Below are positions 11,750-20,758 of a DNA stretch of 20,975 bases, piece by piece; the first letter of the stretch is position 1, and each line of letters begins with the position of its first letter. Where the stretch lies: the UHGV virus genome UHGV-0216266; one strand, written 5' to 3'. The DNA is from a virus. The translations under genes were made by a program, and so were the position numbers. Under the pieces are notes generated by a model. It was not told the origin of the DNA, searched no databases, and saw only the letters and a program-made list of their open reading frames with translations.

Positions 11750-12783
11750 TGGGAAAGAGTAAGAAGAACCGCGCTGCGGCGACGAAACAGATCCAGCTTA
11801 AAAGTCAAACTACAGCCGAAGCATTCAGCTTCGGCGATCCCGTTCCTGTTCTGGACCGCCGAGAATTACTGGACTATGTGGAATGCGTACAGATGGACCG
11901 TTGGTATGAGCCGCCCGTCAGCTTTGACGGACTGGCGCGCACCTTCCGCGCTGCAGTGCATCACAGTTCCCCGATTGCAGTAAAGTGCAACATTCTGACC
12001 AGTACCTACATCCCTCACCCGCTGCTCAGCCAGCAGGCTTTTTCGCGTTTTGTGCAGGACTATCTGGTATTTGGCAATGCCTATCTGGAGAAACGCACGA
12101 ACCGCTTCGGTGAAGTGATCGCCCTTGAACCTGCGCTGGCAAAATACACCCGACGCGGATTAGACCTGGATACCTACTGGTTTGTGCAATACGGTATGAC
12201 AACCCAGCCGTATCAGTTCACGAAAGGCAGCATTTTTCATCTGATGGAACCGGATATTAATCAGGAGATCTACGGCCTGCCCGGTTATCTTTCTGCCATT
12301 CCGTCAGCCCTGCTCAACGAGTCCGCCACGCTGTTCCGCCGTAAGTATTACATCAACGGCAGCCATGCAGGCTTCATCATGTATATGACTGACGCCGCGC
12401 AGAACCAGGAGGATGTGAACAACCTCCGCAACGCGATGAAAAGCGCCAAAGGTCCGGGCAACTTCCGCAACCTGTTTATGTATTCGCCCAACGGTAAAAA
12501 AGACGGCATCCAGATCATCCCACTGTCTGAGGTTGCAGCAAAGGATGAATTTCTGAACATTAAGAACGTGAGCCGCGATGACATGATGGCAGCACACCGC
12601 GTACCGCCGCAGATGATGGGCATTATTCCTAACAATACCGGCGGCTTTGGTGATGTGGAAAAAGCCAGCCGCGTCTTTGTCCGTAATGAGTTAATACCGC
12701 TACAAAAAAGACTCGAAGAACTAAATGAGTGGTTGGGGGAAAAGGTTATTTCTTTTGAACCATATAAATTTGACATTGAATAA
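11749..12783 (+). CDS. Q: Portal protein (P2 gpQ-like)
   Basis: ATG at 11749-11751 (MGKSKKNRAA..., 344 aa, matching the P2 Q length by memory). The track ORF begins one codon earlier at TTG. Co-oriented with and overlapping P. Confidence 0.85.
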   Translation: MGKSKKNRAAATKQIQLKSQTTAEAFSFGDPVPVLDRRELLDYVECVQMDRWYEPPVSFDGLARTFRAAVHHSSPIAVKCNILTSTYIPHPLLSQQAFSRFVQDYLVFGNAYLEKRTNRFGEVIALEPALAKYTRRGLDLDTYWFVQYGMTTQPYQFTKGSIFHLMEPDINQEIYGLPGYLSAIPSALLNESATLFRRKYYINGSHAGFIMYMTDAAQNQEDVNNLRNAMKSAKGPGNFRNLFMYSPNGKKDGIQIIPLSEVAAKDEFLNIKNVSRDDMMAAHRVPPQMMGIIPNNTGGFGDVEKASRVFVRNELIPLQKRLEELNEWLGEKVISFEPYKFDIE

Positions 12784-12827
12784 AAGAAATAACCACCACC
12801 AGTCACACATTGGTAATGTGTGACTGG

Positions 12828-13373
12828 TTAGCGTCCCAATCTAAAGTTTAATTTTTCTCTTGGAGTCATTGCACGCCCAATAGCCCCATCTAATAAATGA
12901 CTATTTTTCTCTAAATGTTCACGCGCCCATGGCTGTAAGTTGAAAGCAAAACCGTAGATCATATCCCCAACACTGGTGGCTCTATAAGTAATCCCCTTAG
13001 CCACAAGTCCCCCCATGACCCCATCCTCAGGCCCACACATAAGTGAATTAACACCTTCGGTAATATAAGACTTTAAATATCCTTTTTCTTCTGCTGTTAG
13101 CTTCTCAAGGTAGGAAGTGCGTACCTTCTTAGCCTGCCTTTCACCAAGTAAGTCATAGAAAGAGAGATAGACTCTTGCAACTAAATAAGATACAGACAGT
13201 AAAAATGCAGGTCCAATAAAAATCCTATACTCATTACGAAAGCCATCAACAGCCACTTTTACTGCCAAAGAGTCTGGCAGAAAAAGTATAAGACCTAAAA
13301 CACATGTAATAGCCACAAGAAATGCTGCAGGTACTTTTCGAAAAAACTCTGCAACTCCAGTTATAACGTCCAT
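12828..13373 (-). CDS. Hypothetical two-TM membrane protein (accessory gene between portal gene and cos)
   Basis: 181-aa ORF in visibly AT-rich DNA (~37-40% GC on hand-counted lines, against ~55% in flanking phage genes). ATG at 13371-13373 with a GGAGG Shine-Dalgarno 10 nt upstream. Two N-terminal hydrophobic helices (AAFLVAITCVLGLILFL, IFIGPAFLLSVSYLVARVYL) and a ~110-aa soluble C-terminal domain. No family recognised. Confidence 0.6.
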   Translation of the reverse strand: MDVITGVAEFFRKVPAAFLVAITCVLGLILFLPDSLAVKVAVDGFRNEYRIFIGPAFLLSVSYLVARVYLSFYDLLGERQAKKVRTSYLEKLTAEEKGYLKSYITEGVNSLMCGPEDGVMGGLVAKGITYRATSVGDMIYGFAFNLQPWAREHLEKNSHLLDGAIGRAMTPREKLNFRLGR

Positions 13374-13462
13374 TTTGTCTATACCTCCAACAGCGCTAAA
13401 AAGTATTTTGAAATTCTACCTCATAACTATGCCAAAAGCACTGCGTCCCCCATCAGCGCGCG

Positions 13463-13481
13463 CTCGTATCCCCGCCACGCC
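13463..13481 (-). other. Candidate cos (cohesive-end) site
   Basis: The minus strand reads GGCGTGGCGGGGATACGAG. The first 13 nt match the 19-nt cohesive end I recall for phage 186 (GGCGTGGCGGGGAAAGCAT; P2 has GGCGAGGCGGGGAAAGCAC). Orientation points toward Q, as expected. Confidence 0.5.
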
Positions 13482-13526
13482 TGCCCGCTTTATGTAGTGG
13501 TTTTCATGCAGGTGCATAATCTACGC

Positions 13527-13550
13527 AAAAGCCCGCCAGTTCTGGCGGGC
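13527..13550 (-). terminator. GC-rich hairpin (GCCCGCCAG / CTGGCGGGC) with a U4 tail on the minus strand
   Basis: Perfect 9-bp inverted repeat at 13531-13550. The minus-strand transcript would end ...hairpin-UUUUGCG. No U-tract on the plus strand. Confidence 0.4.
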
Positions 13551-13823
13551 CTTAGCAAAAACGATCCTCAAACGATCATGCAATCTCATGCAGCATAGAC
13601 ATGCACAGACGAGTAAAGCGAATCGGACTTTACGCAAGGTGAACTCCTCAGCGGGCATAATCAGTATGTCGGAAGATCTCTAAAAATGAATAATTCGGTT
13701 AACAGGTATGCTTACAAAAGCATATATTTGATTAAAAATCATGTAAGGGGGAGGATCTCAAACTGAATCGCCACGGGTTTTACAAACTTCGATAGTCTCT
13801 CTAACGTTTCGGCTGAGGTCAAA

Positions 13824-14249
13824 ATGAAAAGCTTTTACGTATTAATTTTAATTCTGGTTGCAAGCTTTGTTAGCGTCCCAGTTCAGGCGGTAACAGCTAA
13901 AAACTATGAGAAAGGAACTAAAGCTCAACAGAAATCAATATCTTACCTTTCATGTGCATTCTATGGCAGTAGCACACAATTAGATCCTAGCTACACGGAG
14001 CAAGTACCTACAGCCGATATCAAGATATTACAGAAAGCAGCTTACCACGCTTACAACGATGCGCTCTCATACTTTGGCTATGAGGAACCAGATCACGAAC
14101 AACGCATAATTGATTATGCTGAATTTGTGGCGTCGCAAGAAGCTGTGTTATGGGATAAGCCGGGAATGAATGGAAAGCAGGTAACACTAATTGCTCGTTC
14201 TCTCTACAATGAGAGTAACTGTAACTTGTTACTGGACTCAATTAAGTAG
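13824..14249 (+). CDS. Hypothetical secreted/periplasmic protein (accessory gene at the old/tin-equivalent position)
   Basis: 141-aa ORF in AT-rich DNA. ATG at 13824 with a GAGG Shine-Dalgarno 5 nt upstream. N-terminal signal peptide MKSFYVLILILVASFVSVPVQA with an AXA-type cleavage motif (VQA/VT). Mature ~119 aa with two Cys. Convergent with the DinI-like operon. No family recognised. Confidence 0.6.
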   Translation: MKSFYVLILILVASFVSVPVQAVTAKNYEKGTKAQQKSISYLSCAFYGSSTQLDPSYTEQVPTADIKILQKAAYHAYNDALSYFGYEEPDHEQRIIDYAEFVASQEAVLWDKPGMNGKQVTLIARSLYNESNCNLLLDSIK

Positions 14250-14408
14250 GAAAAAGATGGTATTTTGCCCGTAGTTTCAACCTTAATCTCCAAACCTGTC
14301 GCAGAACGGGCGTTCACTCATCAAATAAACGCCACACCTAACGCCTCACTGTACTCGTTGTTCAACCTTGCTGACGCCAGAAGCAATTTCAGACGCCAGC
14401 AACGTTTC

Positions 14409-14642
14409 TTAATGCAGCCAGCTGTCGTCTTCCCACACCTTCTGCATAATTTTCATCACTTGTTTTCTTTCTTCGTCCAGTTGCAGTCCGGTCAGTTCCA
14501 CACCGTTAGAGCTACCTTTGCGGATACGAATTACCGTTTTGGGATACAGGGGGCGCAGATTGCGGTAAAGCTCGGATTCAAGGGCGTCCAGTGTAGACTG
14601 GCTAATCTTCTGCTCTTTATCGATCATTATTTCAATGCGCAT
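14409..14642 (-). CDS. DinI-family protein (resembles the DinI-like C-terminal part of the 186 Tum antirepressor)
   Basis: ATG at 14640-14642 (MRIEIMIDKEQKISQSTLDALESELYRNLRPLYPKTVIRIRKGSSNGVELTGLQLDEERKQVMKIMQKVWEDDSWLH, 77 aa) with a GAGGTG Shine-Dalgarno. Similar to E. coli DinI (MRIEVTIAK...ETWESADDWFV) as recalled from memory. Confidence 0.7.
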   Translation of the reverse strand: MRIEIMIDKEQKISQSTLDALESELYRNLRPLYPKTVIRIRKGSSNGVELTGLQLDEERKQVMKIMQKVWEDDSWLH

Positions 14643-14652
14643 AAAAGTCACC

Positions 14653-14841
14653 TCAGCTGATGACATCCATTGAGCGGTTGTATTCGTGGGTTCTGATTTT
14701 TGCCATGAGTTCATCTGTCAGTTCAGAAACCCACTGCAGGGCCAGCCCCTTCTCTTCATCACTACACTCACTAGCCGCTACAAGCTTAAGAAAAAAATCA
14801 ATGCGCTGGAGCTTCAAAGACTCCAAAAAATAGTCCTGCAT
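14653..14841 (-). CDS. Small acidic protein, first gene of the LexA-controlled operon (possible Tum N-terminal-like module)
   Basis: 62-aa ORF. ATG at 14839-14841 preceded by GGAGG. Stop 10 nt upstream of the DinI-like start. Directly downstream of the LexA-box promoter. Confidence 0.55.
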   Translation of the reverse strand: MQDYFLESLKLQRIDFFLKLVAASECSDEEKGLALQWVSELTDELMAKIRTHEYNRSMDVIS

Positions 14842-14881
14842 CTTTCCTCCTATAACACCAAAGCAATACTGTATACATAAC

Positions 14882-14925
14882 CACTGTTTATATTTACAGT
14901 ATATAATAATCTTACTGATGTAAAA
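14882..14925 (-). promoter_or_regulatory. SOS (LexA-box) promoter
   Basis: Plus 14882-14901 cactgtttatatttacagta matches the LexA consensus TACTGT(AT)4ACAGTA, with CTGT-N8-ACAG exact at 14884-14899. On the minus strand a -10 TATACT (plus 14898-14903) overlaps the box, and a -35-like TTTTAC (plus 14920-14925) sits 16 nt away. A second half-site CTGT is at 14869-14872. Confidence 0.6.
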
Positions 14926-20164: not shown

Positions 20165-20188
20165 GATAAAAGTTCACTTGGAGTGACC

Positions 20189-20758
20189 ATGAATTTGGAG
20201 AAAGGCGGACGAGGCGCCATAGAGCGCATGGTAGAAGCTTATGGATTCAAGACTCGACAGGCGTTGTGCGATCATTTAGGAATCTCTAAAAGTACACTCG
20301 CCACACGCTACATGCGTGACTCATTCCCAGCAGAATGGGTAATCCAGTGCGCCCTTGAAACAGGAACCTCGCTTAATTGGCTCACAACCGGGCATGGTTC
20401 AAAGCAAACTTCAGGTAATACAAATACTATGGAAGTTGCTAAATATGTATTATCTGATGGGGCCTTGTGTGAAGACGGTTTTTATATTTTCGATAGAGAA
20501 TTTCTACCGTCGGCATTCAAGAATCTTTTTGTAATCACAGATAATAATTCTGAATTTATTTGTGATAAGGAATTTGATGATATACGTGATGGTAAATGGG
20601 TAATAAGTATTGATGGCGAAATAACGATCCGTGACATTACTCGTTTACCCGGTGGAAGAATCTTCGTCGAGGGTGGAAACAGAGCCTTCGAATGTAAGAT
20701 AGAAGACATTGAAATAATTGGTAAAATTATAAGCTTAACAGTCAAGTATGTTAAATAG
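20189..20758 (+). CDS. cI: CI-type immunity repressor (186 CI-like)
   Basis: ATG at 20189-20191 with GGAG 5 nt upstream (MNLEKGGRG...). The track ORF starts at GTG 20183. 189-191 aa against ~192 aa for 186 CI by memory. N-terminal HTH (TRQALCDHLGISKSTLATRY). Divergent from apl. Confidence 0.65.
   Translation: MNLEKGGRGAIERMVEAYGFKTRQALCDHLGISKSTLATRYMRDSFPAEWVIQCALETGTSLNWLTTGHGSKQTSGNTNTMEVAKYVLSDGALCEDGFYIFDREFLPSAFKNLFVITDNNSEFICDKEFDDIRDGKWVISIDGEITIRDITRLPGGRIFVEGGNRAFECKIEDIEIIGKIISLTVKYVK

Follow-up and report, generated by a model that had tools for sequence, protein, structure and literature searches.

The stretch of viral DNA analysed here (UHGV virus genome UHGV-0216266, 20,975 nucleotides; hereafter the window) very probably carries the SOS-induction operon of a Fels-2/DuoHS-type, 186-like prophage of the P2 family (Peduoviridae) residing in an E. 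coli chromosome, with a small TumA protein inactivating the CI repressor. A promoter predicted to be LexA-controlled reads into a 62-aa gene that corresponds to the N-terminal part of the phage 186 Tum protein and into a 77-aa gene that corresponds to its DinI-like C-terminal half. The module is not new, having already been described and genetically tested in almost identical prophages. We report its sequence anatomy, its homologies and its conservation across genera.

A predicted LexA-controlled operon behind replication gene A

The whole module lies on the minus strand, just past replication gene A (Table 1). A first-pass annotation, made from the sequence alone, had proposed a LexA box, a promoter and ORFs of 62 and 77 aa, the latter 10 nt apart and in different frames. 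All of these features are present on the minus strand, the two start positions being 199 nt apart. Within the tested segment (12700-14420) the window matches an E. coli chromosome at 100%, and the module was found in 1,125 of 5,426 complete E. coli genomes, that is, in about one in five. The strong hairpin that follows the stop codon of the dinI-like gene is probably either the end of the SOS transcript or the boundary of a cargo region; homology with the DuoHS prophage of E. coli HS stops at 14411.

Table 1. Features of the operon and its surroundings in the window, listed in the order of transcription, with the cI gene last.
Feature	Position	Strand	Remark
Replication gene A, 804 aa	17408..14994	-	Upstream neighbour of the SOS promoter
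-35 hexamer TTTACA of the predicted SOS promoter (counterpart of 186 p95)	14919..14924	-	Sequence and conservation
Alternative -10 hexamer TATACT	14898-14903	-	Better hexamer, but 15 nt from the -35
-10 hexamer TACTGT, inside LexA box 1	14896..14901	-	Same hexamer as the annotated -10 of 186 p95
Predicted LexA box 1, TACTGTAAATATAAACAGTG (minus strand)	14882..14901	.	Consensus match, PSSM, conservation
Predicted LexA box 2, CAGTGGTTATGTATACAGTA	14867..14886 (14886..14867)	.	Overlaps box 1; colicin-style double operator
Shine-Dalgarno AGGAGG of the 62-aa gene	14846..14851	-	4 nt before the ATG
tumA-like gene, 62 aa	14653..14841	-	Homologous to the N-terminal part of 186 Tum
Junction hairpin GTCATC-agctga-GGTGAC	14647..14664	-	Spans the tumA stop and the next Shine-Dalgarno
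tumB/dinI-like gene, 77 aa	14409..14642	-	Homologous to the C-terminal half of 186 Tum
Strong hairpin after the dinI-like stop	14364..14406	-	11+3 bp stem; without U-tract on the minus strand
cI repressor gene, 186-type	20183..20758	+	Predicted target of the antirepressor

A simple promoter scan did not call a sigma-70 promoter at the site of the LexA box because TACTGT fits only three of the six positions of the -10 consensus. The promoter is predicted instead from the annotated 186 p95 (TTCACA-N18-TACTGT) and from the geometry conserved across related loci; in the window the spacer between TTTACA and TACTGT measures 17 nt.

Within the 21 kb of the window, the palindrome CTGT-N8-ACAG has a single occurrence, at 14884-14899, against 0.24 expected by chance. 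The 20-mer that contains it (14882-14901) deviates from the LexA consensus at three positions and found no equal match in 100 shuffles. To score SOS boxes we used a PSSM trained on E. coli sites from the literature, with training scores of 12.7-28.4 and a median of 21.4. Box 1 reached 24.4, above the training median. Box 2 was the second-best site in the window with 15.9, a value within the range of genuine sites, and the next unrelated site in the 21 kb scored 7.9. Going by its palindrome, its AT-rich spacer and its position over the promoter, box 1 is a predicted LexA box, and the near-consensus LexA operator that had been proposed to cover the -10 is supported by the motif search, the shuffles, the PSSM and the likeness to 186 p95.

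The first-pass annotation overlooked the second, overlapping box at 14867-14886. The two 16-bp boxes share one base (CTG-N10-CAGTG-N10-CAG) and lie downstream of the -35, which is the pattern of a double operator, and both would be expected to be occupied by LexA as two dimers. Over 42 nt, the operator shows 85-88% identity to those located immediately upstream of the colicin R gene (cra, pColR) and the pesticin gene (pst, pPCP1), and it also resembles many small Col-type plasmids. It has the same layout as the colicin and pesticin operators (TACTGT-N-CAGTGG-N-TACAGTA), whereas its -35 region and the genes behind it show no relationship to theirs, the predicted product being an antirepressor here and a toxin there. 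Either common descent or convergence imposed by LexA could explain the likeness to cra and pst. Double overlapping SOS boxes of colicin promoters were described by Lu and Chak (1996, as cited in PMC2994835), and basal expression from colicin-type promoters with double SOS boxes is not detectable (PMC2994835). In contrast to the double box of the window, 186, PSP3 and a Yersinia phage with a tum gene possess a single LexA box.

Two genes that correspond to the two parts of 186 Tum

The record of phage 186 shows the promoter p95 with a LexA site over its -10, followed by a tum ORF of 146 aa that contains three further starts in the same frame. The last of these, a GTG placed after AAGGAGG, leads to a DinI-only product. 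The same record states that full-length Tum alone 'inhibits CI DNA binding', while DinI-only forms 'modulate SOS induction'. Work on p95-tum is reportedly that of Lamont in 1989, Brumby in 1996 and Shearwin in 1998. The operon of the window shares with p95-tum its position, the -10 TACTGT inside the LexA box, homologous modules and, as predicted target, a 186-type CI. It differs in that 186 fuses the modules into one 146-aa ORF with internal starts and has one consensus LexA box; moreover, the 186 operon continues with orf97 after tum.

Residues 1-75 of the DinI-like ORF align with residues 71-145 of 186 Tum at 41% identity (3e-24). This alignment and the 186 record agree with the earlier description of 186 Tum as LexA-controlled and as having a DinI-like C-terminal half. 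The 77-aa ORF matches the Pfam family DinI (PF06183) with an E-value of 6.6e-23 and 81.3 bits (cut-off 24.2). Against NF007893, the NCBIfam equivalog of host DinI, it obtained 42.7 bits and thus stayed under the cut-off of 111 bits. Judged by these matches, the protein is a phage DinI-like paralogue and not the chromosomal DinI.

The relationship of the 62-aa ORF is more remote. Pairwise BLASTP detected no similarity to 186 Tum or to PSP3 TumA, and profiles were needed. We compared 28 diverse relatives of the 62-aa ORF with 107 relatives of the 186 Tum N-terminus using hhalign and obtained a probability of 96.8% (P 2.9e-10) with a colinear match of positions 4-44 to 4-44. Direct pairwise comparison of the ORF with 186 Tum by phmmer gave 6e-05 to 1e-04, and a phmmer chain leads through a 60-aa 'tum protein' of a Yersinia phage that matches the window ORF at 6.5e-7 and 186 Tum at 4e-9. 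The ORF belongs to PHROG 698 (3.6e-38) and also matches PHROG 8554 (2.4e-8) and PHROG 1993 (0.0022), to which PSP3 TumA and the N-terminus of 186 Tum belong. Reciprocally, residues 7-44 of 186 Tum match PHROG 698 (2.4e-5). Profile, phmmer and PHROG results, together with the DinI alignment, therefore identify the two ORFs as the two halves of Tum.

Searches of Pfam and NCBIfam yielded no family for the 62-aa ORF, its PHROG family is listed with 'unknown function', and almost all records label the gene 'hypothetical protein' or, wrongly, 'levan regulatory protein'. AlphaFold models the protein as a two-helix hairpin (helices 2-23 and 28-61, pLDDT 88). When this model was searched against the PDB with Foldseek, only generic helical hairpins were returned (E > 0.4), and a sequence-profile search of the PDB gave no match; the modelled two-helix fold carries no functional information.

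The window does not contain a single fused Tum ORF but the split form (tumA/tumB). The 62-aa ORF ends with a stop codon at 14653-14655, and the 10-nt gap behind it holds the Shine-Dalgarno sequence GAGGTGA that, together with an ATG, belongs to the dinI-like gene alone. The proposal that the Tum function is divided over two cistrons in different frames was accordingly upheld. The first-pass annotation had also asked whether the ORFs correspond to the N- and C-terminal parts of 186 Tum and whether a frameshift separates them. Alignment places them at the N-terminal part and the C-terminal half, respectively. A recent frameshift does not separate them, the two-cistron form being common and conserved. 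It is in fact the rule, as seen in Fels-2, PSP3 (tumA/tumB), DuoHS and 21 of 33 surveyed loci, and the fused gene of 186 is the exception. Lemire et al. (PMC3121763) likewise state that tum is split in two in Fels-2 and PSP3. Most database entries related to the N-terminus of 186 Tum are stand-alone proteins of 63-78 aa, some of them frameshift variants of the 186 linker. A phmmer search of the full library with the 62-aa ORF returned 66 representatives, mostly stand-alone proteins of 55-75 aa with a few longer or fragmentary ones. Not one of the 66 is built as a fused protein of about 146 aa that ends in a DinI part, and so fusion does not characterise the 62-aa branch.

Related prophages and conservation of the module

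The closest relative is DuoHS of E. coli HS. Its 62-aa protein is 98.4% identical to that of the window (one T51S substitution) and its DinI-like protein 100% identical, and both prophages have the same double SOS box core, the same 10-nt gap and the same position after gene A. DuoHS differs by three bases in the spacer of box 2 and by the cargo downstream of the dinI-like gene (12710-14410 in the window). The 62-aa gene of DuoHS is ECHS_RS04495 in RefSeq and the DinI-like gene is ECHS_RS04500; the supplement of the Phollow study names ECHS_RS04495 as the gene deleted as 'tum' (PMC12055606). In-frame deletion of tum, or a lexA(Ind-) allele, abolished mitomycin C-induced lysis and the formation of virion foci (Ortiz de Ora et al., 2025, PMC12055606). 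In the tum deletion strain, the response of the host SOS reporter persisted (PMC12055606). In DuoHS, both the 62-aa gene and a cleavable LexA are thus needed for induction by mitomycin. The first-pass annotation had predicted a mitomycin-inducible prophage, and this is what those experiments demonstrate for a near-identical element.

Fels-2 of Salmonella LT2 shares about 99% DNA identity with the window over the promoter and the genes (STM2728, STM2726.1/STM2727). The 62-aa protein STM2728 is 98.4% identical and the DinI-family protein STM2726.1 100% identical to their counterparts. Unlike the window, Fels-2 has a third gene, STM2726, on the same strand, and the CI proteins of the two share only 41% identity. 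The genes STM2726-2727-2728 act as a single operon that is induced by DNA damage, STM2727 being upregulated 5.5- to 14.8-fold with the mutagen MX (PMC2225428). The Fels-2 module was treated by Bunny, Liu and Roth (2002, as cited in PMC3121763).

In PSP3, too, tum is divided into two cistrons that come after gene A, and a LexA box covers the promoter. The upstream gene, tumA, is described in its record as 'similar to 5' end 186 tum; UV induction of prophage', and the second gene, tumB, as 'similar to dinI and 3' end of 186 tum'. The DinI-like protein of the window shares 78% identity with TumB. TumA falls into the 186-type branch (PHROG 1993), and its resemblance to the 62-aa protein is remote (phmmer 0.018-0.03). 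The PSP3 genes lie in the same frame with a stop codon plus one codon between them, whereas the frames in the window differ. By description, the dinI-gfoA/gftA operons of Gifsy-1, -2 and -3 (Lemire et al., 2011, PMC3121763) are comparable in that they too combine a LexA-controlled small antirepressor with a DinI homologue. Their gene order is reversed (dinI first), and their repressors belong to another group related to DicA/RacR.

Conservation was surveyed at 33 loci encoding relatives of the 62-aa protein, with one genome per species and at least 15 genera, all found with a single protein. The genera include Escherichia, Citrobacter, Enterobacter, Klebsiella, Raoultella, Kluyvera, Serratia, Pantoea, Erwinia and Tatumella. 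CTG-N10-CAG is present within about 100 nt upstream of the 62-aa homologue at 31 of the 33 loci, and 21 retain the double box. The promoter geometry TT[TC]ACA-N17-T[AG]CTG is kept at 25/33 loci, and the start region (T/C)AGGAGG(G/A)AA(G/A)ATG is conserved in related loci. Directly downstream, a dinI-like gene follows in 21 cases; none was seen within the 900 nt examined in the remaining 12. Among relatives the intercistronic gap measures 8-12 nt and the relative frame varies.

Competing explanations and the proposed route to induction

The operon might be an accessory 'moron' cassette whose DinI-like protein modulates the host SOS response, the 62-aa ORF being an unrelated protein or no gene at all and having no role in induction. 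The lack of a Pfam or NCBIfam family, the label 'hypothetical protein' carried nearly everywhere and the failure of BLASTP to relate the 62-aa ORF to 186 Tum would fit this idea. It conflicts with the profile homology to the N-terminal part of Tum, with the conservation of the 62-aa ORF and the LexA box at 31/33 loci, among them 12 where no dinI-like gene was found downstream, and with the near-identical DuoHS gene, deletion of which prevents induction but leaves the host SOS reporter responsive. We consider the cassette very improbable. The converse reading, that the DinI-like protein is the inducer, acting through RecA or CI, and that the DuoHS phenotype reflects lost translational coupling to the downstream gene, we rate as extremely improbable. 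Coupling would be consistent with the 10-nt gap and with the small hairpin that includes the stop codon and the following Shine-Dalgarno sequence, but this hairpin folds no better than chance (z = 0.22). Besides, antirepressor activity in PSP3 maps to the upstream gene (PMC3121763, from a personal communication cited second-hand), the 186 record ascribes inhibition of CI binding to full-length Tum only and modulation of the SOS response to the DinI-only forms, and 12 of the 33 loci have no dinI-like gene that was found downstream.

A third reading retains the Tum function and has both ORFs joined by recoding, either +1 frameshifting or readthrough at AGC-TGA-G, into a single Tum-like product of about 144 aa. 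Indeed, 186 makes a fused 146-aa protein, and in the window the DinI frame has no stop in the 24 codons that precede its ATG, giving a 101-aa ORF (14409..14714) that extends across the end of the 62-aa ORF. However, a gap of 8 to 12 nt among relatives means that the relative frame is not conserved, and the last sense codon is AGC in the window and AAT in Fels-2; the varying frame and the non-conserved codon argue against recoding to a fused protein. Neither AGC nor AAT would appear to allow +1 re-pairing of the tRNA. A separate Shine-Dalgarno sequence and ATG serve the DinI-like gene, the DinI part of 186 itself retains an internal Shine-Dalgarno sequence and GTG, and the inspected records of Fels-2, PSP3, E. 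coli HS and phage 813R9 each call two genes. A recoding fusion, and with it the 101-aa in-frame extension of DinI, was rejected as a candidate on the variable gap lengths and the non-conserved junction codons, and the chance that such a product is made appears negligible.

The junction hairpin was likewise considered as an attenuator or coupling element. This candidate was dropped since its folding equals that of shuffled sequence (z = 0.22); a contribution to translational coupling is conceivable at most.

Separate TumA and DinI-like proteins remain the preferred reading, and the following sequence of events can be proposed. In the lysogen, LexA bound to the promoter just downstream of gene A would keep the operon silent, probably as two dimers on the overlapping boxes, which span the -10 and the transcription start. 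Upon DNA damage, activated RecA would promote self-cleavage of LexA, and the operon would be transcribed. The 62-aa protein would then bind the 186-type CI without cleaving it and stop CI from holding its operators, so that the lytic promoter could fire and the prophage would be induced. The DinI-like protein may bind RecA filaments and thereby tune the SOS signal. What it contributes to prophage induction is uncertain; Gifsy prophages with non-polar deletions of dinI showed no significant change in induction (PMC3121763).

Direct binding of the 62-aa protein to CI, with a block of operator binding, is suggested by analogy to 186. There, Tum inactivates CI by sequestration (PMC7708051), and reversible binding between Tum and CI prevents binding to the operators (Shearwin, 1998, as cited in PMC3121763 and PMC7708051). 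The CI of the window shares 33% identity with 186 CI (E 6.6e-37); on this similarity it is of the 186 type, predicted to escape cleavage by RecA, and is the predicted target of the 62-aa protein. By inspection, it is identical to the DuoHS CI from the annotated HS start, which lies 6 nt later, and Apl and CII of the window are identical to the proteins of the HS prophage, whose CII shares 69% identity with 186 CII. The 186-type immunity genes noted in the first-pass annotation were thereby recovered for both CI and CII.

The window thus represents a common E. coli prophage type that is predicted to be inducible by DNA-damaging agents including antibiotics, as already demonstrated for DuoHS and Fels-2. 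The practical value lies in annotation: the 62-aa gene merits the name TumA-type antirepressor. The double SOS box and the occurrence of one TumA with divergent CIs are modest leads on induction thresholds and on cross-talk between prophages. We tentatively suggest, as a possibility that we hold to be somewhat less probable than its opposite, that the double operator provides for very tight, cooperative induction with a late threshold and in few unstressed cells, and that one TumA recognises a conserved N-terminal patch of CI and could cross-induce P2-family prophages with divergent CIs.

Proteins that are 98-100% identical to the TumA of the window are paired with divergent repressors, namely the CI of Fels-2 (41% identity to the window CI) and that of Klebsiella phage 4LV2017 (48%). 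The latter comprises 313 aa and has a duplicated N-terminal domain. Recognition of a conserved CI patch by TumA, allowing it to act across such prophages, is a possibility; within the N-terminal domain of CI, the window and Fels-2 proteins have the stretch RDSFPAEWVIQCALETG in common, and the Klebsiella CI carries a similar one.

A predicted double LexA operator

We predicted a second LexA box in the window that overlaps the one already reported, and the two boxes together are a predicted colicin-type double SOS operator. Sequence comparison over 42 nt gave 85-88% identity between this operator and those upstream of colicin R and pesticin. In contrast to the window, phage 186, PSP3 and a Yersinia phage each carry a single LexA box.

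Features of the tum module, the cI genes and the cargo region (window positions unless a locus is named)
Feature	Position	Strand	Remarks
SieB-family superinfection-exclusion ORF	12828..13373	minus	PF14163, 4.5e-25; in cargo region
141-aa ORF	13824..14249	plus	N-terminus signal-peptide-like; PHROG 7437 (unknown function); in cargo region
Strong hairpin, 11+3 bp	14364-14406		directly 3' of dinI-like stop codon
101-aa ORF	14409-14714	minus	taken as chance open frame
Second LexA box, predicted	14867-14886		overlaps reported box, 14882-14901
cI, window	20183-20758
cI, Fels-2	L044:3592-4224
cI, Klebsiella phage 4LV2017	L043:2903-3844
Internal start for DinI part, phage 186	L001:7277-7300		Shine-Dalgarno AAGGAGG + GTG; within fused tum

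Nearly identical TumA proteins and divergent CI repressors

TumA proteins that are nearly identical (98-100%) are paired with CI repressors sharing only 41-48% identity with the CI of the window. The CI of Klebsiella phage 4LV2017 comprises 313 aa and has a duplicated N-terminal HTH domain. The window and Fels-2 CIs share the N-terminal stretch RDSFPAEWVIQCALETG exactly, and the Klebsiella phage protein has a similar one; this stretch could represent a common target of the antirepressor. If so, cross-induction would be possible.

Fused and split forms of tum

The fused tum of phage 186 contains an internal start for its DinI part. Most of the database entries related to the N-terminus of 186 Tum (P0182-P0301) are stand-alone proteins with lengths of 63-78 aa, and some carry a frameshifted version of the 186 linker. 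It seems that tum has been fused and split repeatedly. We also considered a 101-aa ORF in which the DinI frame opens 24 codons farther upstream, within the last part of the 62-aa gene, and regarded it as a chance open frame because the frame as well as the gap length differ among relatives.

Distribution, annotation and the neighboring cargo region

The module is carried by 1,125 of 5,426 complete E. coli genomes. Its 62-aa antirepressor gene (14653-14841 in the window) is listed as 'hypothetical protein' in RefSeq, the corresponding family PHROG 698 is entered as 'unknown function', and neither Pfam nor NCBIfam returned a model for the protein. The label 'levan regulatory protein' is given to relatives of the 62-aa protein in two places, a UniRef entry and the record of a Klebsiella phage. 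Siccibacter turicensis carries the module in decayed form (L040, about 1400-1680), with the LexA box gone and the frame shortened to about 20 codons.

Between the dinI-like and portal genes, the window carries cargo (12710-14410) that differs from that of DuoHS, the near-identical prophage of E. coli HS. The hairpin behind the dinI-like gene lacks a U-tract on the minus strand. As DuoHS homology starts again at position 14411, this hairpin lies just within the variable cargo, bordering the conserved backbone.
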